From the NCBI GenBank assembly GCA_030587475.2, contig JAUQYZ020000060.1, forward strand, positions 1 to 18,241: a DNA stretch of 18,241 bases, read 5' to 3'. The position numbers were made by a program, and so were the translations under genes. Shown in pieces: positions 151 to 10,649 of this stretch (positions are counted from its first letter, which is position 1; every line of letters starts with the position of its first letter). This stretch comes from Candidatus Sigynarchaeum calidifontis. GTDB taxonomy: Archaea > Asgardarchaeota > Lokiarchaeia > Sigyniarchaeales > Sigyniarchaeaceae. The notes beneath the pieces were generated by a model. The model did no database searches. It saw only the letters and a program-made list of their open reading frames with translations, and was not told the origin of the DNA.

Positions 151-274
151 ATGCAGGCTCGCCGCAGGCGGGCCAGGGGGGCCGCGATTGGCATCGGCGG
201 CCGCCAAGAACGCGTGGTGGCTGTGCTATCTCGCTCGCCGTCCCAGCCCGAAAGGTAAAATAGGCGATGCTTGC

Positions 275-616
275 ATGTATTACCTGGTCATCGTCGAGAT
301 CCCGGTGGCCCCGCTGGTTGCTGCTGGCGGCGAGGCGTGCCGGGCCGCGGTCGGTGACGAGGCGATGCGCTTGGCAGACGAGATCGAGAAGAAAGTCGTG
401 GAGGAGGACGAGGTCGACGAGGGTTTTCTCGTTCCCGTGAAGAACGTGTGGATAGTGGACAAGCTGCGCGAGGAAAACAAGCAGAAGGACAAGGTCATCG
501 CCGAGAAGGATAATATCATCGCCGAGAAAGACAAGGTCATCGCCGAGAAGGACAAGGCCATGGATGCGCTCGCGCGGGAAAACGCCGAGCTTAAGAAGCG
601 CCTTGGCTTGAAATGA
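275..616 (+). CDS. Small hypothetical protein with a C-terminal coiled-coil heptad repeat (KDKVIAE)n; possibly the 3' remnant of a longer gene
   Basis: ORF from the ATG at 275 (113 aa) ending ENKQKDKVIAEKDNIIAEKDKVIAEKDKAMDALARENAELKKRLGLK. The track's 188 start lies in the rRNA trailer and is unlikely. Confidence 0.55.
   Translation: MYYLVIVEIPVAPLVAAGGEACRAAVGDEAMRLADEIEKKVVEEDEVDEGFLVPVKNVWIVDKLREENKQKDKVIAEKDNIIAEKDKVIAEKDKAMDALARENAELKKRLGLK
485..558 (+). repeat. 21-bp coding tandem repeat, about 3.5 copies
   Basis: aaggacaaggtcatcgccgag / aaggataatatcatcgccgag / aaagacaaggtcatcgccgag / aaggacaaggc, encoding KDK(V/I)IAE-type heptads. Confidence 0.9.
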
Positions 617-1049
617 ACGTGCCCGGGCGGGAATCTGCCCGCTGGCTTCTACCCCTTACCGGGCAGGCTGGCACGCTCCACTATCTTTTCATCGATCTCC
701 ACGGGAACTTTTGCCGAGACGACACGAGCAAGAAAAAAGAACCGTCCGGCACCGAGCCCTTTCCCGATAAAAGCGTCATAGCGAGAACGGGAACGGAATC
801 GCAAGCGGATCGATCGAGCGAAGAAGAGGGGGACGGGACCCCTTTTCCTGACGCTAGATGAACTCATCGGCCTGAAAGCGGCTGTCGACGCGTACGCGGA
901 TTACGGCACGAAATATGGCCAGGTCAAGCTGAGCGGCTTCCTCGTGGATCGATTGGCAAAGGCGCGTGAGGCGCAACGGAAATCGCGATTAGTCACCAAC
1001 GATAAATTGAACGTTGATGAAAATGATTCGATGAGATGGGTATGCGATA
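613..1049 (+). pseudogene. Possible frameshifted gene remnant
   Basis: A start-less open frame from 782 reads RERERNRKRIDRAKKRGTGPLFLTLDELIGLKAAVDAYADYGTKYGQVKLSGFLVDRLAKAREAQRKSR and overlaps the 613-861 ORF in another frame. No family recognised. Confidence 0.25.
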
Positions 1050-1409
1050 TCACGAATTCATTGCTGGTTTCTCCATTGCTTCGATAATTGCTTTCAATTG
1101 ACGCAGCAAAGGCGGGATGTCCTTGATGATCGTGTTCCACACTATCTCCAGGTTCACGTCGAAGTATTTATGTATCAGCCGATTTCGCATGCCTATTATC
1201 GCTTTCCAGGGAACGTCAGGATGCTTTTCTTTAAGGTCATCTGAAATTTCGCTTGCAGCTTCACCTATTATTTCGATCAAGTGCGTGGATGCAAGATGGA
1301 GCAATTCATCAATTAGGAACATTTCACGGGTTTTCCCATTCGTGATACGTGCGACTTTTTCAGCTGCATCTTTCATTTCCTTGAGCCGGATAATGTCATT
1401 GCTCGACAT
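1050..1409 (-). CDS. HepT-like HEPN ribonuclease toxin (DUF86 family)
   Basis: EIIGEAA and PW..IIGMRNRLIHKYFDVN (RX4HXY motif). Overlaps the upstream MNT gene by 14 nt. Confidence 0.93.
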   Translation of the reverse strand: MSSNDIIRLKEMKDAAEKVARITNGKTREMFLIDELLHLASTHLIEIIGEAASEISDDLKEKHPDVPWKAIIGMRNRLIHKYFDVNLEIVWNTIIKDIPPLLRQLKAIIEAMEKPAMNS

Positions 1410-1710
1410 AGATCGTCTCCGCTGTTCTTACAACTTCATCGCGAAAATATCGACTCAGGTCTTCCGCTGTCCTTAGATCTACCTTTCGACCACCGAAGAG
1501 CTGTGACAGTTCCTCTTCCATCCGAGCAATATCGAGAAGCGTAGGAAGGTGCATCGGATCGAATTTCACGAGGACGTCGATGTCGCTATCATCTCGAAAA
1601 TTTCCACGCAGTACAGAGCCGAATAGCGCAAGATTTTTGATCTTGTTCTCCTGACAAAATTTCCTCAACCGTGCCCTTGAGATCGACACGTGGTCATGGA
1701 TCTTTAACAT
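1396..1710 (-). CDS. Minimal nucleotidyltransferase (MntA-type antitoxin)
   Basis: LFGSVLRGNFRDDSDIDVLV (GSX10DXD) and RKVDL, 104 aa, directly upstream of the HEPN gene. GAGGTG RBS at 1719-1724. Confidence 0.93.
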   Translation of the reverse strand: MLKIHDHVSISRARLRKFCQENKIKNLALFGSVLRGNFRDDSDIDVLVKFDPMHLPTLLDIARMEEELSQLFGGRKVDLRTAEDLSRYFRDEVVRTAETIYVEQ

Positions 1711-1749
1711 CGCGCAACCACCTCGTGTTTGTCTTGCAGCTATCGATCA

Positions 1750-1757
1750 TTATAAAA
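1750..1757 (-). promoter_or_regulatory. TATA box of the MNT-HEPN operon
   Basis: TTTTATAA on the minus strand, about 40 nt upstream of the MNT ATG and about 25 nt upstream of its RBS. Confidence 0.55.
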
Positions 1758-1981
1758 TAGTTTATCTCATTAAGTGATTGAGTGTCTATCCAGAAATGTA
1801 CCTTTGCTTAACCTACCATGCCAGCTTACGAATAACTACATTCCTTCTATGAAGGAAAGGAAATATTTGGAAGCACATGACCGCGTGCACCTCAAGGTAC
1901 TCTGGCTGCCAGGCTTTACTTGCAAGTAATCCATCCCAACTCGATCATAAAAGGATTTTGATCTTCACGGCACGGAAAAAG

Positions 1982-2017
1982 CGTTTCCGGAATGAATTCC
2001 CGTTTCCGGAATGAATT
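1982..2017. repeat. 17-bp direct repeat (2 copies, 19-bp period), each containing the palindrome TTCCGGAA
   Basis: cgtttccggaatgaatt at 1982-1998 and 2001-2017. Confidence 0.9.
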
Positions 2018-2063
2018 TTTACGTACATTTTTCTTATTGATAAGGAAAGCTCATAATTGGTGA

Positions 2064-5000
2064 TTATCTTTTTCCCGCGCGGCATTTACTCGCCAGGTCA
2101 TGCAGGCTCATTCGTTCATAAACGCTCGCGGCAGTTTCTAGCGAATCATTACCGAGAGCGACGTTTCCTTGCTTGAAATAGAGTGGAGCAAGATCAGACA
2201 AGAATTCCGCAGCGTTCTTGAGTGCACCATTTTCCATGTACAATTCGATGGCGGCCCGTCTAAATTTAATGGCTTCATCGACATTTCCGGCCATATCGTG
2301 AGCACGGGAAATGCTTCCCAACGTCCAGGCAACATCGCATATATTCCCCAGACCTCGATTTATTTCTATTGCTTGTTCAAAGCATTGAAAAGCTAGTTCG
2401 AATTGCTTGGCATTTCGGTATGATGTGCCTAGATTCTGGTAACATCTAGCGACGTTAACCGTGTTACCGAGGGTTTTATGGATCTCTAAAGAATCTTGAA
2501 AAAATCTCGTGGAAAGATCGTAGTTTACTTTTTCATACGCAAGCAATCCTGCGGCATAGAGAACGTCGGCCTTTCTTCTTGCATTCTTCGCTTTTTCAAG
2601 AAATGATGCTTCCCGCATGAGCATATCTATCGCGCCGTTAAAATTGCCGGTTACAGACTTAATCTTCGCGAGCTCATCGCATATGTCAGCAGCCAATTGC
2701 CAGTTACTTTTTGACTCGTAAATTTCCAGGGCTTTCAAATAGAATTCCTCTGCTTTGCTAGCAAGATCAAGATTTTTCAATATGAAACCAATGTTCTTGT
2801 AATCATCGGCGATCAAATCAATGTTACCGAGTTTTTCATCTATTTCCTTTGCTTTCAGATAACAATCGACAGATTTTTCTGCATTCTTCAGAAAATAGTA
2901 GTTTTTTCCCTCGTGCTTGAGTGCATCGGAAGCCGCTTTTAAATTTCCAGTCTCTAAATGGATTTTCGAACATCGATCAAACGTGAATATTGCATCCTCG
3001 TGTTGCTTGGCTGCCTCTTGAGCTAAAGCAAGGCTTGTTTGCACTCGCGCCGCGTCTGTCATACTCCCGATTTTTTCGTATAACTCGTTAGCTCGCCGGT
3101 AATAGTCAATCGCAGCGATATAGTTGCCAGCGCGTTCCTCCACGTCACCAATATCATCTAGGGCCTCGGCGAGATTGGAGTAATTGCTTGATTTTTGTAA
3201 ATAATCGATGTTTCGCTGGGCATACACACGCGCACTTTGGATATCGTTGATACGCAGCGAGCAGGTCGTCAGATTATGCAATATGGTAGGGATATTCTTT
3301 TCATCTTTCATCTGCTCGTAAATGGATAATGCTTTGTTGAATGATTCAATGGCACGATGATAATCAGATTTTTCAAATTGCAAGATACCCATTTCGTTGT
3401 AAAGTCGTCCTTTATCAGAGATATTCCCGTGTTCAAGTAAAACATCTTGCGCGGTTGAATACATTGCAATGGCCTCATTATACCTTTTCAAGCCTCTCTT
3501 AGTGTTTCCCAGATCAATTTGAACAATTGCTGCATTCACTTTATCTCCAAGCGAGCTCCAAATCTCGAATGAACGATTGAAATGAGACAATGCATCAATT
3601 AAATCGCCGCGAGTGCTCATGATGATGCCTAAATCGCGTTCGCAGCGAGCAACACCTTTTTTATCCCCGATCTTTTCACGGATGGAAAGTGCGTGCAAAA
3701 CACACTTTTGCCCCTCGTTCAAATTGCCTTTATTAACTAGCAACATCCCTAAGTCGACAAGGCAAGTGCTGAACTCCGAAAGCCGATCCATACTCTTGAA
3801 CAACTCTAGAGCTCTGCGATACCATGCTTCGGCATCATCAAGTAAACCCCGCTTGTATTGAAGAGCAGCGATTTTCTGGTAGATATTAGCGAGTTGCTTC
3901 CCGCGCGCGATGCGTTTTTCCATTTCCAAGGCTTGCTGATACCTTTCAAATGCAATTTCATAATTACCGCGTGATTCGGCAATTCTTCCTAAATTTTGCA
4001 TGATATCGGACATGGCACGTTCATTTTTCATATCTCGCGAAATGCCGAGGGCTTCGTTCATAATCACCTCAGCTTTGTTCAGATTCCCTTCGTGCAAATA
4101 GCACAAGCCGAGATCGGCAAGGGACAGACATAATTGGCCTTTGTCACCAATCCGGCGAGCTAGGTCGATAGATTCCTCGAAAAAAGGCCGTGCAAGATCA
4201 TCTTTTTCTTGAACACGATATATTTCTCCGATAGTTGCAAGCGCGTCCACTTTACTTTTATAATTACAAAGATTATCTATTATCTTCACGCTTTGAATTG
4301 CATAATCCATTGCTTTATCATAATCCCTATTTTCCTTGTAGATATTAGCGATGACTTTCAAGACGTTTGCGTAACCAGAAAGACACCCGAGTTCTTGATA
4401 AATTGCCATGGCCCGGAACATGTGTTTCAATGCTGCGTCATTGAACCCGAGGATGCTTTCAATCATACCGATTTTACTTGTTGTAACGGCTATGCTCATC
4501 AGATCGGTTCCCGATCTTTGCTTGATCTCGAGAGATTGTTGCAAAAGACCTTTCGCATCGTTGTATCGTGCAAGATCGATATACACGTCGCCTATATTAG
4601 CAAGGATCACGGCACGAGCATCATTCTCTTCGGGAGATTTTCGCAAGGACAGCGATTTTTCTAAATATTTAAGCGCCACATCATATATTTCTTGATCCTT
4701 GAACAACAAGGCTATGTTATTCAAGATAGCCGGGATCACGTGAGATTTACCTGCCTTCTCTGCTATCTCGAGCTCTTGAAATGCGCAACGCAAGGCATCG
4801 TCTATATGCCCGGTATCTTTATATATTTTGTACGCGATATAATAACGCAAGCTTTCATCTGGGGCTTTAAGCTTCTCACGCAAATAAGAAATTGGTGAAA
4901 TAGCGAACGGAACTTTGTCGACGCTTGGGAACTCGTCTTTAACAATGTCATGTATCACCCGTGAAATGTTAACATCCACGCGATAAACGTGATCGACATT

Positions 5001-5846
5001 TCCCATCACTTTAATCTCTGCCAGTATTCGTCCTACCTTGTCAAGTGATTCGAGATCGGGATTCACATCACCGGGCACTTCCATGATCTTTGCTTTTCCC
5101 TCGTCGTCGAACACGTGATTAACCCAAGCGACCCCTGTAAGTCCTTTCAAAGCTTTTAGCGTGGGGACGACATCAAAATCATCACTTCCAGAATATCCAA
5201 TTATCACGAGCATTCGCTCATACGTGAGATTATCAATGAGTTTTTTCTTGAATGGCTCGATTGAAAACATATTTTGGCCTTCTTTGTTCGATCCGAAGGC
5301 TTGAATGGTCGCGACCAGGGATTTTCTCGTTGAATCTCCCGTTATGATGTTTTCAGTCGACCCGTGGATCTTGTACAGCACCTTCTTGCCTTGCATAACA
5401 TCTTCGACAGGATCTACGTGTTTTTCGAAGTCCGCGCGCGTTATCACCACTATAATATCATCCTTTGGCACTCCCAAGAGCAGCAATGCTCTTTCGATCA
5501 AGAAATCGAAATTGGTTGTCATTATGTAGTTTCCGGCTAATATATTACGAGCTAGAAAAAAATGTTGAGAATTGGGACGATCACACAAGGTAAAATAATC
5601 GATGACATTCAAGTCGGGATCGATGGTATCACGTAATATTTCAACAAGACCCTCGAACCGCAATTCTTTTAGGTTCTTGATCTTCTCACGTTCCTCTTCT
5701 GGAGCGACAAAATTGATCATGGCATCCATCATGGCACGGCCACTGGGTTGATTTGATGGAAGGTCAATAGAACATCCAGCACCCACGAGGAACAAGAGCT
5801 TTCTCCCACTACCAATTATATCATCAGGAAAGAACGAGATTGGCAT
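2064..5846 (-). CDS. SIR2-like (SIR2_2-type, putative NADase) domain fused to a long TPR solenoid
   Basis: N-terminal motifs LFLVGAGCS, IMTTNFD, LYKIHGS and LVIIGYSGSDDFD. From about aa 330 there are roughly 20+ repeats of ~40 aa of TPR type (e.g. NNIALLFKDQEIYDVALKYLEKSL, QNLGRIAESRGNYEIAFERYQQAL). No Walker A or STAND NTPase seen between the domains. Confidence 0.9.
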   Translation of the reverse strand: MPISFFPDDIIGSGRKLLFLVGAGCSIDLPSNQPSGRAMMDAMINFVAPEEEREKIKNLKELRFEGLVEILRDTIDPDLNVIDYFTLCDRPNSQHFFLARNILAGNYIMTTNFDFLIERALLLLGVPKDDIIVVITRADFEKHVDPVEDVMQGKKVLYKIHGSTENIITGDSTRKSLVATIQAFGSNKEGQNMFSIEPFKKKLIDNLTYERMLVIIGYSGSDDFDVVPTLKALKGLTGVAWVNHVFDDEGKAKIMEVPGDVNPDLESLDKVGRILAEIKVMGNVDHVYRVDVNISRVIHDIVKDEFPSVDKVPFAISPISYLREKLKAPDESLRYYIAYKIYKDTGHIDDALRCAFQELEIAEKAGKSHVIPAILNNIALLFKDQEIYDVALKYLEKSLSLRKSPEENDARAVILANIGDVYIDLARYNDAKGLLQQSLEIKQRSGTDLMSIAVTTSKIGMIESILGFNDAALKHMFRAMAIYQELGCLSGYANVLKVIANIYKENRDYDKAMDYAIQSVKIIDNLCNYKSKVDALATIGEIYRVQEKDDLARPFFEESIDLARRIGDKGQLCLSLADLGLCYLHEGNLNKAEVIMNEALGISRDMKNERAMSDIMQNLGRIAESRGNYEIAFERYQQALEMEKRIARGKQLANIYQKIAALQYKRGLLDDAEAWYRRALELFKSMDRLSEFSTCLVDLGMLLVNKGNLNEGQKCVLHALSIREKIGDKKGVARCERDLGIIMSTRGDLIDALSHFNRSFEIWSSLGDKVNAAIVQIDLGNTKRGLKRYNEAIAMYSTAQDVLLEHGNISDKGRLYNEMGILQFEKSDYHRAIESFNKALSIYEQMKDEKNIPTILHNLTTCSLRINDIQSARVYAQRNIDYLQKSSNYSNLAEALDDIGDVEERAGNYIAAIDYYRRANELYEKIGSMTDAARVQTSLALAQEAAKQHEDAIFTFDRCSKIHLETGNLKAASDALKHEGKNYYFLKNAEKSVDCYLKAKEIDEKLGNIDLIADDYKNIGFILKNLDLASKAEEFYLKALEIYESKSNWQLAADICDELAKIKSVTGNFNGAIDMLMREASFLEKAKNARRKADVLYAAGLLAYEKVNYDLSTRFFQDSLEIHKTLGNTVNVARCYQNLGTSYRNAKQFELAFQCFEQAIEINRGLGNICDVAWTLGSISRAHDMAGNVDEAIKFRRAAIELYMENGALKNAAEFLSDLAPLYFKQGNVALGNDSLETAASVYERMSLHDLASKCRAGKR

Positions 5847-5868
5847 GGTAGCGACTTCTGGCGAAGAA

Positions 5869-5882
5869 CATAAAAATTTTCT
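5869..5882 (-). promoter_or_regulatory. BRE/TATA promoter of SIR2-TPR (likely leaderless mRNA)
   Basis: Minus-strand AGAAAA-TTTTTATG ends 22 nt before the ATG at 5846. No RBS visible. Confidence 0.5.
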
Positions 5883-6156
5883 AATGCATTATTCCTCGAA
5901 CCCTTCCAGACCGCGTGTTAATTGGGTGAAACCGGATTCAAAAACCGAACATTATCGTCATTCTCAGCCACCAGCAACGCTGGGACACTATCACGCCTGA
6001 GATCACGCCCAATCGAGCGTTATAGCCACCTTTTACAATAAAGTCGATAGGATTGCAAGTTTTAAACGAAATGAACACCACAGACGTACGCCCCTCTTTA
6101 ATGGTTGTATCAAGATATTAAAAGAAAAAGCAGATAAAAAAGACCCCCAATGCAAA

Positions 6157-6270
6157 TTACCCAGGGATCATGCAACCCGGATCGCTCACGCCACCCATGA
6201 AAGAGGAGATACCGATAGTCACTGCCAATACCAACATGAGCATCGCAAGCAATTTTTCTAACTTGTCCAT
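6157..6270 (-). CDS. 37-aa secreted or membrane peptide, copy 1: MDKLEKLLAMLMLVLAVTIGISSFMGGVSDPGCMIPG
   Basis: GGGTG RBS upstream. 32/37 aa identical to the paralog at 7119-7232, with 9 synonymous codon changes versus 5 aa changes, no indels, and the same start and stop positions. Confidence 0.85.
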   Translation of the reverse strand: MDKLEKLLAMLMLVLAVTIGISSFMGGVSDPGCMIPG

Positions 6271-6375
6271 GGTCATGGAACACCCGATGTAGATATATGA
6301 GGCGCTCGTGCCGAATCGCATGGGAATCGTACAAGACAGCACGACGAGCAGCTTCTCACTCGAATCGCTCGAACT

Positions 6376-6383
6376 CATATAAA
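6376..6383 (-). promoter_or_regulatory. TATA box of peptide gene copy 1
   Basis: TTTATATG about 106 nt upstream of the ATG, at the same position as TTTATATA in copy 2. Confidence 0.65.
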
Positions 6384-6434
6384 CCACGATGGGAAATTAC
6401 GCGAATGGATCTCTCTATGTTGAAGCGGGTCGAA

Positions 6435-7049
6435 CTATTGGATCGAATTTACGTTTTTTTTCCACAGGAGACGCACCCGGTTGGCTGGTACATCCCCCCA
6501 CTCGCGACTGTCTGGAAGGAAATCCTCCTTGAATCCAAGCTTGCGCCCGATGGCCAGCATTGGCAGGTTATCCCTCGTGGTTTCAAAAAAAAGCTCTGTA
6601 ATGGTTGGCTGGAACATCTTGTCGAGGTTATCTTGAACGTGCTTGACAACATGATATCCGATTCCTTGCCCCCGGCAGGATTTTACCAACGCGATCCCCA
6701 TCACCTTCCGAGTTGAAGAAATAACACTTTTCGTCATGAGCAGATAACCTACTAACAAAAACTCATGATTGCTTATGCCATAAAACAACGGTTCCATTAT
6801 CGAAGGGAATACCATTTGAAACCAATGCCTGGTCCTTCTCCCTTGATATCGAACATTAGCAATCGTTTTTCCTTCAGCAGCCAAGTCCATAATTGCATGT
6901 AGTATAATATCCATAAAGATTTCGCTCGATCCATCCAATTGAGAAAGCATGAAAGAACCAGATCTATCCGGAATATCAAGTCGAGCGCGATAGCCATCCT
7001 TTTTAATGAACTCGTGAGGATTGCACGCCTTGAACGAAAGGAATACCAT
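6435..7049 (-). CDS. GNAT-family N-acetyltransferase (RimJ/RimL-like C-terminal half)
   Basis: Acetyl-CoA motif A GIALVKSCRGQGIG and motif B ETTRDNLPMLAIGRKLGF. A GAGGAG RBS favours the ATG at 7049 (MVFLSF, 204 aa) over the track's 7079. Confidence 0.85.
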   Translation of the reverse strand: MVFLSFKACNPHEFIKKDGYRARLDIPDRSGSFMLSQLDGSSEIFMDIILHAIMDLAAEGKTIANVRYQGRRTRHWFQMVFPSIMEPLFYGISNHEFLLVGYLLMTKSVISSTRKVMGIALVKSCRGQGIGYHVVKHVQDNLDKMFQPTITELFFETTRDNLPMLAIGRKLGFKEDFLPDSREWGDVPANRVRLLWKKNVNSIQ

Positions 7050-7118
7050 GGACACTCTCTCCTCAATAATTAAACTCATAATAAAAGGGAAAAAGTGAAT
7101 AAAAAAGCATTGAAAAAA

Positions 7119-7232
7119 TTAACCAGGAATTGTACAACCCGGGTCGCTCACGCCACCCATGAAGGAGGAGATACCGATGGTCACTGCCAATACCAGCACG
7201 AGGATCGCGAGCAATTTCTCTGACTTTTCCAT
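7119..7232 (-). CDS. 37-aa secreted or membrane peptide, copy 2: MEKSEKLLAILVLVLAVTIGISSFMGGVSDPGCTIPG
   Basis: AGGTG RBS 10 nt before the ATG. Mostly synonymous divergence from copy 1. An oligo-T tract follows the stop. Confidence 0.85.
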   Translation of the reverse strand: MEKSEKLLAILVLVLAVTIGISSFMGGVSDPGCTIPG

Positions 7233-7339
7233 GGTCGTGAAGCACCTTGCTGCAGTTGCATGAAGTGCTCGTGCCGAATCGCATGGTAATACATTCAAGA
7301 TGGCATAGAGAGCAGCTTCTCGCTCGAATCGTTCGAATC

Positions 7340-7347
7340 TATATAAA
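7340..7347 (-). promoter_or_regulatory. TATA box of peptide gene copy 2
   Basis: TTTATATA about 108 nt upstream of the ATG. Confidence 0.65.
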
Positions 7348-7410
7348 GCACGATGAGAAATGATGCGAGTATATCGCCTTCCATGTAGGCCGGGATGAAT
7401 TTTTTGCTTC

Positions 7411-7505
7411 CGATTGGAATGTAGTGGTACCACGATGTAGCCGCAGCGGAAGTCGCGGCTGGATCACCACAATGCAGTCTCGCACAAGGCGGGGCAAGGA
7501 GGGGG
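7411..7505 (+). repeat. Degenerate second copy of the 16S rRNA 3' end and trailer
   Basis: 7437-7483 matches 116-162 at 41/47 nt without gaps. Weaker similarity extends upstream (gtagtggtaccacg vs gaagtcgtaacaag) and downstream (aggcggggca vs aggcgggcca). Confidence 0.85.
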
Positions 7506-7520
7506 AGCTCGAGCTCCCCC
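7501..7520. repeat. Perfect 20-bp palindrome (hairpin, possible terminator or binding site)
   Basis: GGGGGAGCTCGAGCTCCCCC, about 65 nt downstream of the Rab gene stop. Confidence 0.8.
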
Positions 7521-7585
7521 GATCTTCATTTCCAATGGCACTTTTCCAACGCTGCACACCCCCGCTGCAACGCTTTGACGTCGAT

Positions 7586-8692
7586 TCAATCTTGCGCGTC
7601 TTTTATCTTGGAACGAGCATAGCCGCGAGGATTCCGCTTTCCTCGATGCTCCTGCGCCTCACGTGCCCTCAAGGCAAGATCTCGAAAAGATTCCTCCACG
7701 TGTTCGCCCGTGAACGCGGACGTGAGAAACACGCGACAAGATAATTCTTGAGACAAGTTGCGGATTTCTTCATCGCTAACAGCACGTTTTTCGGACATGT
7801 CGAGTTTATTTCCGATAACATGGCACGGGACGTTTCCAAGGACCGAAATTGCATCATCGTGCCAAGCCTTGACGTTTTTAAATGTTTCATGACTCGTTAG
7901 GTCAAAAACGATGATGATACCTTGTGCCCCCTTGTAGAAATTCTTCCGGGCTCTACTAAACTTCGATTGACCAGCGATATCCCAGAAAACGAGTTCTATT
8001 TTTTCGCATCCGATATTCAAAACTTTATCACTCAAGTTCGTTCCGATTGTAGGTAGATATGTCTGGCGAAAAGCATTATCGGTGAATCGAAGAATGAGTG
8101 ATGTTTTCCCGACCGCCGGATCGCCGATCACGATGATCTTGTACACGGAATCCATTTCTTTATTGTTACCAGCTGTGCCTGATTCATCAGGGAATTCGTC
8201 GTCACCATTTCGTCCTAATTCATGCGAACGCAGTTCCTCTAACCGGTGCGTCATGGTCCTGAAAAAAGCATCAATGAGTGGTTGTTTCACGGGATGCTTA
8301 TTTTTCTCGAGTTCAACAATTTCTTTTGCATAATCATCGAAAATTTTTTCGAAATCAATTAAATACTTGTAAAAAATAGCATCGCTTGTCTCGCCGATGA
8401 TCAACGACAGCGTCGACAATCCGCGAAAACCACGCGAACCAGGATCTTGATATGCAAGGCAACGCACGACGATTTTAGCGGCAGCGTCCGGAAGAGGCAA
8501 GATGGCAAGTTTCTCGGGCACGGAATCTGATCCAGAGATGATATTCATCGAGGTGATAGCGTATTTGTCGACTAAATCCTTCTCCAAAGACGGGTACCAA
8601 ACAGCAGGAACGGGGCCAATGCGCTGGTCAAACTTGGAATACACGGCAGCCTGGATGATTTTTGTACCCAATAGCTCGTTCATTTTTTTCAT
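7586..8692 (-). CDS. Rab-like small GTPase with an N-terminal longin/uDENN-like domain (Asgard eukaryotic-signature-type protein)
   Basis: G1 GDPAVGKT, G2 PTIG, G3 WDIAGQ, G4 NKLD and G5 TSA are in the C-terminal half. The N-terminal YSKFDQRIGPVP resembles the F-D-x(2,3)-G-P start of longin/uDENN domains. No C-terminal cysteine prenylation motif. Confidence 0.88.
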   Translation of the reverse strand: MKKMNELLGTKIIQAAVYSKFDQRIGPVPAVWYPSLEKDLVDKYAITSMNIISGSDSVPEKLAILPLPDAAAKIVVRCLAYQDPGSRGFRGLSTLSLIIGETSDAIFYKYLIDFEKIFDDYAKEIVELEKNKHPVKQPLIDAFFRTMTHRLEELRSHELGRNGDDEFPDESGTAGNNKEMDSVYKIIVIGDPAVGKTSLILRFTDNAFRQTYLPTIGTNLSDKVLNIGCEKIELVFWDIAGQSKFSRARKNFYKGAQGIIIVFDLTSHETFKNVKAWHDDAISVLGNVPCHVIGNKLDMSEKRAVSDEEIRNLSQELSCRVFLTSAFTGEHVEESFRDLALRAREAQEHRGKRNPRGYARSKIKDAQD

Positions 8693-9797: not shown

Positions 9798-10649
9798 ATG
9801 GACGTCGATTTTGAAAAAGAAAAGGCCTGGTGGGATGCAAAGGCCCCGCACGAGGAATCGGACGAGCGGGATGAATGGGTCAACAGGGCCCTCCGGTGGA
9901 GGGAAATCGAAAGATCATTAGATGGCGTCGAATCGATCCTCGATATAGGTGGGGGTACCGGCGCGTTCTCCATCCCGCTTGCCGAGCGCGGGTTCGACGT
10001 GACACATCTCGACATCTCGCCCGAGATGCTCTCGAGAGCCAGAAAGAAGGCAGGAAACTTGAAGAATATCCGCTTCGTTGAGGGAAACGCGTCCGACTTG
10101 AACGGAATTCCAAGCAGCTCATTCGACCTCGTCTTGAACATGGATGGTGCCATCTCCTTCTCCGGCACGCTGTACAGGAAGGCGATAGCGGAGACGTGCC
10201 GCGTCACGAGGAAACGGGTCTTGATCACCGTATCACACCAGGCCTTGATGAGCGCCATCTGGGTTGACGGGAGCGTGCAAGAATCGGGACGGATCCTCGA
10301 TGCCGTTGGCGCGATGTTCGACAGCGGCGAGTGGCACCAGGACCAATTCGCGGACAACAAGCTATTGAGCAAAGGCTGCACGCAAGATTATTTTGGAGCA
10401 TTCAAGGCCTTCTTACCCGCCGAGTTGAAGCAATTGCTGGAGAACGAGGGAATGGTGGTGACCAAATGCAAGGGGCTGGGCACCTTGGCACTTCTATGCA
10501 GCGAGGCTGCCTTGAAGAAAGTGGCGAAGGATGCAGGGCTGAAAGTCAAATTTCTCGACTTGTGCGAGGTGTATGACGAAAATATGTTGCCAGGCGGGTT
10601 CGGGACGAGGCAGCGGGCGGGTTTGCTGGCGATCGGGACGAGACGATAA
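9798..10649 (+). CDS. Class I SAM-dependent methyltransferase
   Basis: ILDIGGGTG, VTHLDISPEML, FVEGNASDL and SSSFDLVL motifs. Confidence 0.92.
   Translation: MDVDFEKEKAWWDAKAPHEESDERDEWVNRALRWREIERSLDGVESILDIGGGTGAFSIPLAERGFDVTHLDISPEMLSRARKKAGNLKNIRFVEGNASDLNGIPSSSFDLVLNMDGAISFSGTLYRKAIAETCRVTRKRVLITVSHQALMSAIWVDGSVQESGRILDAVGAMFDSGEWHQDQFADNKLLSKGCTQDYFGAFKAFLPAELKQLLENEGMVVTKCKGLGTLALLCSEAALKKVAKDAGLKVKFLDLCEVYDENMLPGGFGTRQRAGLLAIGTRR

Follow-up and report, generated by a model that had tools for sequence, protein, structure and literature searches.

A decayed second copy of the 16S rRNA 3′ end borders a low-GC gene block in Candidatus Sigynarchaeum calidifontis and may be the scar of an insertion

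Results

Two 16S-like 3′ ends on one contig

We analyzed contig C10 in its entirety (18,241 nt; referred to below as the window), which belongs to a metagenome-assembled genome (MAG) of Candidatus Sigynarchaeum calidifontis comprising 269 contigs at 89% completeness and 54% GC. Two plus-strand stretches of the window resemble the 3′ end of a 16S rRNA gene. Copy 1 (54-181) is part of a module, here called module R, that is also present in sibling assemblies. Its intact-looking 16S part, reaching to ~151, has the helix 44 apical hairpin and 3′ strand, helix 45 and an anti-SD sequence, and the right end of the copy consists of the first ~29 nt of the trailer, including trailer hairpin 1. It scored 48 bits against the Rfam SSU model (E 6.5e-13) and is 94.5-98.5% identical to related 16S contigs. 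Copy 2 (7376-7502), delineated by BLAST, alignment and folding, is a degenerate 16S 3′ fragment comprising a helix-44-derived part (7376/7388-7436), helix 45 (7438-7461), a ruined anti-SD (about 7464-7473) and trailer hairpin 1 (about 7477-7495), all on the plus strand. The two copies enclose the toxin-antitoxin, SIR2-TPR, GNAT and small-peptide genes that an earlier note on this DNA had placed there, as borne out by Pfam matches and the small ORFs found: HepT (1050-1409), MNT (1396-1710), a SIR2-TPR gene encoding 1,260 aa (2064-5846), GNAT (6435-7079) and a small ORF (7063-7284), each on the minus strand. Beyond copy 2 lies a convergent Ras-family GTPase gene (7586-8692, minus strand; Pfam Ras E 5e-45).

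Copy 2 is a diverged direct repeat of copy 1

The earlier note had reported that 41 of 47 nt are identical between 116-162 and 7437-7483, and alignment reproduced this count. Its structural details were likewise upheld: copy 2 pairs 9 of the 10 positions of its helix 45 below a GGAA loop (10 of 10 in copy 1), trailer hairpin 1 is retained, the anti-SD has changed from CACCTCC in copy 1 to CACCACA in copy 2, and the helix 44 portion of the decoding strand is eroded in copy 2. The homology nevertheless exceeds the extent given earlier, as 69-181 aligned with 7388-7502 at 82 of 113 positions with one 2-nt indel, a direct repeat of the 3′ part of an RNA gene. The left limit of homology in copy 2 is probably at ~7376, a fuzzy boundary with an uncertainty of ~12 nt, and the repeat is 113-128 nt long, with 73% identity overall. 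Identity varied along its length, from 55% (69-90) and 65% (91-110) to 83% (111-152) and 76% (153-181). Alignment found no similarity between the copies outside 69-181 and 7388-7502, and the sequence upstream of copy 2 is the promoter of the peptide gene.

The repeat is specific to this pair. BLAST against the whole 5-Mb assembly recovered 7437-7502 at 82% identity (E 6e-12), and the count of orphan copies that the earlier note had proposed returned no further full copy. In a comparison with all other 320-nt tiles of the contig, the local alignment score of the repeat was 47 and that of the next best tile 15. Scans of the genome and metagenome contig collections with exact degenerate patterns of the two copies gave no match. 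Copy 2 recurs, ungapped and at ~99.95% identity, in three further public assemblies of this species, and is therefore no assembly artefact.

Several further matches were examined and set aside. Extra or low-identity 16S-tail matches in further genomes within the order, namely G067, G098, G122 and G007, are bacterial contaminant operons or ordinary linked operons rather than orphans. A match to the trailer part in G003 was attributed to chance, the surrounding stretch reading as ordinary non-rRNA sequence; this genome of the same family, a single 3.7-Mb contig with a completeness estimate of 63%, has no SSU rRNA match. Among viral contigs, a search for archaeal 16S tails turned up one contig that begins within an ordinary rRNA operon and one reduced bacterial-type 16S, neither of them relevant.

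We took a functional SSU rRNA 3′ end to have a CCUCC anti-SD, an intact helix 45 and the decoding strand, to be linked to a 16S body and to score at least 50 bits in Rfam. With CACCACA in place of the anti-SD, 9 of 10 helix 45 pairs, an eroded helix 44 and an Rfam SSU score of 10 bits, copy 2 falls outside this definition.

The DNA between the copies is composite

The GC content is 59% over 182-1000, 43.5% over 1001-7375 and 57% over 7376-7585, against a genome median of 54% and a 5th percentile of 46.6%. Cargo of foreign composition thus lies between the repeats (1001-7375, defined by composition and Pfam), and this low-GC block reaches precisely to the start of copy 2; the composition of 182-1000 is host-like. 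No close paralog of the HepT-MNT pair was found elsewhere in the genome. The N-terminal SIR2 region of the SIR2-TPR protein has its best matches, at 50-55% identity, in another family of the order, with 49% at most in the sister species; together with its 43% GC, these matches suggest that the gene may have been transferred from a lower-GC Asgard lineage. A paralog of the peptide-GNAT module on contig C173 has no rDNA pieces beside it, and the idea that this module travels with rDNA pieces was dropped.

A partial third copy, ~40 nt derived from the helix 44 3′ strand (6412-6452, plus strand), was recognized from alignments and repeat families D1-D3 and D7. It is nearer to real 16S than is the corresponding part of copy 2. 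The third copy arises within a duplicated 440-nt segment, of which it forms the end. The two versions of this segment (6013-6452 and 6981-7420; 72-86% identity) flank the GNAT body. Each contains the first ~30 GNAT codons and a small ORF with its TATA-like promoter region, and extends into the left end of the 16S-like fragment. Of the two GNAT starts, the left one (6013-6102) stands as an orphan piece before the SIR2-TPR gene.

Immediately right of copy 1, a 7-nt junction leads into a 5′-truncated gene of host type (182-616, plus strand; 59% GC) that still encodes the last ~140 aa of a protein of ~270 aa. Complete versions occur on contig C130 of G000 (307-1119, minus strand; 84% nt identity) and contig C420 of the sister species, G001 (86% nt identity). 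Homology to these begins at 189 and the N-terminal 132 aa are missing, which makes 181/182 a breakpoint that truncated a host-type gene. The family to which 189-616 belongs is restricted to the genus and has no Pfam domains; its coiled-coil tail is encoded by 21-nt tandem repeats (483-555 in the window). The G001 gene lies in two parts at the ends of two contigs, suggesting a repeat or strain variation inside it. We considered whether the truncated gene could be a split integrase of the SSV type, and rejected this, as it has no integrase domains and the missing N-terminal half occurs nowhere else in the window. With a truncated host-type gene, normal GC and paralogs elsewhere, the DNA directly after copy 1 is not obviously that of a mobile element, contrary to what had been supposed.

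Only copy 2 runs into the native 16S trailer

Three metagenome contigs (L048, L049 and L050) carry this organism's helix 44 sequence. L048 is an uninterrupted 16S gene, while L050 and L049 hold the 16S end plus its trailer. A common trailer plan, consisting of hairpin 1, a G/C-rich hairpin 2 and a T-rich run, was evident in L050, L049 and G002, a genome of the same family, and hairpin 1 covaries between these species. Copy 2 keeps this plan until about 7570: positions 7501-7520 form a perfect 20-nt palindromic hairpin 2, followed by a T-rich run and an arm-like stretch, and the continuation as a whole (7501-7570, plus strand) is collinear with the L050, L049 and G002 trailers. Similarity of 7503-7585 to the L050 and L049 trailers was significant in shuffle tests (p 0.001-0.002). 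No trailer similarity was detected after copy 1 (182-271; shuffle p 0.5-0.98), which departs from the plan at 181/182. The distal repeat is thus followed by native flank and the proximal repeat is not, an arrangement characteristic of islands. Since only the distal copy runs into the native trailer, we regard copy 2 as the ancestral end, now non-functional, and as very probably a dead relic of the native 16S end. It shares the helix 45 sequence derived in this lineage; helix 45 and trailer together indicate that it came from the organism's own 16S and not from a distant donor. Copy 1, judged by the same comparison of flanks, would be the newcomer.

A trailer stretch complementary to the 16S leader is present in L050 but missing from copy 1. 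On L050 (Ga0115600_1037954, 1-1106), a 16S 5′ start lies 913 nt beyond a 16S 3′ end that has its full trailer, and 14 nt of trailer (194-207) are 93% complementary to 856-869, ~180 nt upstream of the 16S start, resembling a putative processing stem. The layout of L050 represents two 16S genes in tandem or else a real gene preceded by an orphan tail.

The GTPase gene is likely the original neighbor of the 16S trailer. Its ortholog in the sister species (81% aa identity) shares neither neighbor with this locus. The gene has a GC content of 45.6% here and 48.5% in G001; since the sister species shares this low GC, the gene need not be counted as part of the island. Dozens of Ras-family GTPase genes are carried by relatives within the order. 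The N-terminal ~180 aa of the protein, previously read as longin, have no Pfam match.

Copy 1 is an orphan behind variable DNA

The match to the window starts at position 54 in three related metagenome 16S contigs and in three sibling assemblies. Positions 1-53 are A-rich, unrelated DNA standing in place of the helix 44 5′ strand; they showed no anchored similarity to authentic 16S upstream sequence (p 0.5-0.9), and the 53/54 junction was seen in this assembly only. In two near-identical siblings, L106 and L108, the 16S sequence extends 73 nt further left through a normal helix 44 and the universal CACACACCGCCCGTC stretch, and the module begins in the loop of helix 43, preceded by unrelated and mutually different DNA. 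Identity among these strains is 99.95% over 10 kb, yet the left flank of L106 has 37% GC and an unannotated 196-aa ORF, and that of L108 has 63% GC and a DEAD/ResIII helicase gene. Different DNA to the left of the module in near-identical strains is what would be expected of an active insertion hot spot. In L049, which represents another species, the junction falls at most about 13 nt from the L106/L108 position and follows a winged-helix-regulator-like gene. An 8-9-nt motif just left of the junction is common to L106, L108 and L049, and hence to two species; its bases do not pair, and it was discarded as a hairpin half-site. Searches for longer contigs extending the sibling or L049 flanks found none. 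In L108, the 250 nt to the left of the 16S module (9805-10054) are 72% identical to contig C167 of G000 (1981-2229), just upstream of a ~297-aa ORF with no Pfam family, in a region that continues without rDNA.

The right end of the module is constant, abutting the 5′-truncated gene at 181/182 after only ~29 nt of trailer in all four assemblies. The L108 and window modules differ at five positions, all within trailer hairpin 1, where a perfect stem is still formed; at least two versions of the module therefore exist in the species.

These observations do not bear out the assumption that the proximal copy is the end of an intact 16S gene: positions 1-53 are not rDNA, and the sibling module is an orphan behind unrelated DNA. 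No contig linking either copy to a 16S body was found, nor were other parts of 16S found in this assembly or in G001. The proximal repeat was accordingly not seen to complete a functional gene, although assemblies may fail to resolve a repeated module, so that such a gene may still exist. An intron or intervening sequence in helix 44 is an unlikely explanation for 1-53, given that the siblings have a normal helix 44 at this place and that the trailer side is broken too.

The helix 44 apical hairpin recurs as an exact 21-nt match (28 nt at 93%) on contig C14 of G000 (4153-4180; locus L088), in an intergenic position with no other rDNA nearby; the sole annotated gene of that contig is URO-D-like. 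This piece could be a minimal attachment-type site or a captured hairpin. Taken together, unrelated DNA meets 16S 3′ fragments at two recurrent positions, both adjoining hairpins: the helix 43 loop (L106, L108, L049) and the base of the helix 44 apical hairpin (53/54; copy 2 at ~7376 +/-12 nt; C14).

Discussion

A proposed insertion into the 16S 3′ domain

We assign a probability of about 0.55 to the interpretation that the duplication, the native flank on one copy, the compositional border, the variable left flanks and the recurrent boundaries observed here mark the scar left when DNA inserted site-specifically into the 3′ domain of 16S, at a hot spot for recurrent insertion. According to this model, copy 2 together with 7503-7570 would be the original 3′ end and native trailer of a 16S gene. 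Approximately 7.2 kb (182-7375) would have entered the 3′ minor domain of 16S at the apical hairpin of helix 44, and a replacement (54-181) for the final ~100 nt of 16S, with ~29 nt of trailer, would have come to lie on the gene-proximal side. The displaced original end, severed from the rRNA and without a function of its own, would then have decayed, losing its anti-SD, acquiring the helix 45 mismatch and suffering erosion of its helix 44 strand. The site would have been hit repeatedly, later events displacing the replacement in turn, such that the proximal module is now an orphan behind strain-variable DNA. A recombinase and a circular intermediate would have taken part, and the replacement end would once have served the ribosome. 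The hairpin-linked borders and the strain-to-strain variation fit with a site-specific recombinase.

The integration scar postulated in the earlier note is therefore sustained in part, by the trailer found only on the distal copy and by the low-GC border at copy 2. Against it, neither an integrase nor an empty site was found. That note had already remarked on the missing integrase, and we concur, as ORFs of the window and the readable flanks of sibling contigs have no recombinase domains and no integrase adjoins an attachment site. The MAG has two PF00589 matches, both on other contigs and neither near rDNA, and an integrase fragment at the start of contig C48 shares no sequence with the window or the sibling flanks. 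An empty site, in which the 16S end directly meets the GTPase gene, was not found among same-species assemblies, all of which carry the island; in the sister species the 16S end is unassembled and the GTPase gene lies in another context. Our estimate stops at the value given because no recombinase, no empty site and no link to a 16S body were found, a truncated host-type gene follows copy 1, and the trailer of copy 1 is incomplete.

A more far-reaching proposal, which we offer tentatively and consider doubtful, is that a family of mobile elements of Asgard archaea integrates inside 16S, at the helix 43 loop or the helix 44 hairpin, and brings a replacement decoding strand, helix 45 and anti-SD tail. 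Were this the case, part of a working small-subunit rRNA would be exchangeable between strains, and decayed ends would accumulate downstream as serial scars while intact modules became orphans. In a bolder variant, the well-preserved orphan modules would themselves be expressed.

Other explanations for the second 16S end

Copy 2 could instead be what is left of a tandem 16S gene, the downstream gene having been deleted or overwritten by the island until only its last ~125 nt and trailer survived, with no site-specific integration involved. The spacing in L050, where a 16S start follows a 16S end by 913 nt, is in keeping with such an arrangement, as are the 2-3 copies of 16S in relatives within the order and the completeness of the native trailer of copy 2. 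Random deletion, however, leaves unexplained both the coincidence of several independent junctions at two hairpin positions and the end of the proximal module after only ~29 nt of trailer, which all four assemblies share, and 16S-derived sequence is undetectable left of ~7376. We therefore consider the tandem origin rather unlikely.

An insertion that needed no integrase is less probable again. Either a Campbell-type single crossover via a short 16S 3′ stretch or the capture of rDNA during break repair would duplicate the shared stretch, and both would accord with the lack of an integrase nearby and with a patchwork block that starts with a truncated host-type gene. Old islands, however, commonly lack their integrase, and the recurrent hairpin-linked borders, together with the 8-9-nt motif at three junctions in two species, look more like the work of a site-specific enzyme than of chance homology.

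We find it very improbable that copy 2 is a functional element, be it the small RNA mimicking helix 45 with a disabled anti-SD that the earlier note had entertained, or a terminator or insulator built on three GC-rich hairpins between the GTPase gene and the peptide-GNAT operon. Helix 45, hairpin 1 and the palindrome at 7501-7520 can still fold (z -3.2), one pair of hairpin 1 has changed on both sides with pairing kept, the middle of the repeat is better preserved (83%) than its left part (55-65%), and a TATA-like box lies ~25-35 nt upstream of 7376. Yet the hairpins are merely those of every native trailer, the changes in the helix 45 stem include an unpaired A-C, and the TATA-like box suits the minus-strand peptide gene equally and was duplicated along with it. 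Moreover, the element was not found in the sister species, the 154 genomes of the order match it only in their own 16S ends, and it belongs to no Rfam family, in line with neither a conserved small RNA nor a cis-regulatory RNA. The mimic finds no support, given the lack of conservation outside the species, the lack of an Rfam family and a decay that looks roughly neutral.

Finally, a mis-join of rRNA reads can be discounted almost entirely. In its favor, the MAG is broken into 269 contigs, this contig opens in rDNA, and none of the sibling assemblies reproduces positions 1-53. Copy 2, however, is 18-27% diverged from the real 16S end and hence not composed of misplaced rRNA reads, and it lies mid-contig and ungapped in three other assemblies, which excludes an artefact for copy 2 and leaves only 1-53 doubtful.

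Implications

If the insertion model is correct, mobile DNA would be able to overwrite the end of 16S, the most widely used phylogenetic marker, and so give rise to mosaic 16S genes, and the 16S 3′ flank would be a hot spot for defence islands in the archaea closest to eukaryotes. It would also help to explain why 16S ends break Asgard assemblies. Orphan 16S tails can in addition mislead rRNA gene callers and estimates of copy number. Should the insertion model fail, copy 2 would be an rRNA pseudogene fragment of local interest. In a limited search of the open-access literature, we found no paper describing an insertion in the 16S 3′ domain with duplicated or replaced helix 44, helix 45 and anti-SD.

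Comparison with known systems

Islands at tRNA and tmRNA genes are textbook knowledge. Islands and proviruses that use tyrosine recombinases to enter the 3′ ends of these genes carry a copy of the gene end and leave the old end at their far border, and tandem arrays of them leave serial partial copies of the gene; the tycheposon islands of Prochlorococcus are said to be one example of islands at such 3′ ends. Like these islands, the locus described here has a direct repeat in which the 3′ part of a structural RNA gene is joined to a short flank, a distal copy that has native downstream DNA and decays, cargo of foreign composition and of defence or toxin-antitoxin type, serial fragments, and repeat borders beside hairpins. 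It differs in that the target is the 16S 3′ minor domain, from the helix 44 tip or helix 43 loop through the anti-SD, in that no integrase is present and the proximal copy was not seen joined to a gene body, and in having a long, old repeat (113-128 nt, 73% overall identity).

A second parallel comes from Asgard archaea themselves. According to Wu et al. 2022 (PMC8813620), the elements HeimM2 and HeimV2 of Candidatus Heimdallarchaeum lie directly between the single 16S gene and a tRNA-Arg gene, a homing-endonuclease-like gene is proposed to account for their targeting, and their cargo includes repeat-protein and defence-like genes. As in the model proposed here, these mobile elements of an Asgard archaeon sit immediately downstream of 16S, and two different elements use one site; the 16S flank can therefore be regarded as a known landing zone in these archaea (PMC8813620). 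Unlike HeimM2 and HeimV2, for which the text consulted reports no duplication of the 16S end (PMC8813620), the present locus has such a duplication, and neither a tRNA gene nor an endonuclease was found in it.

Copy 2 also resembles rRNA pseudogene fragments in being short and non-functional, with eroded motifs and a sub-threshold Rfam score. In contrast to such fragments, it keeps its native trailer, it borders a compositional island exactly, and its sister fragments share its boundaries, which together indicate a directed process.
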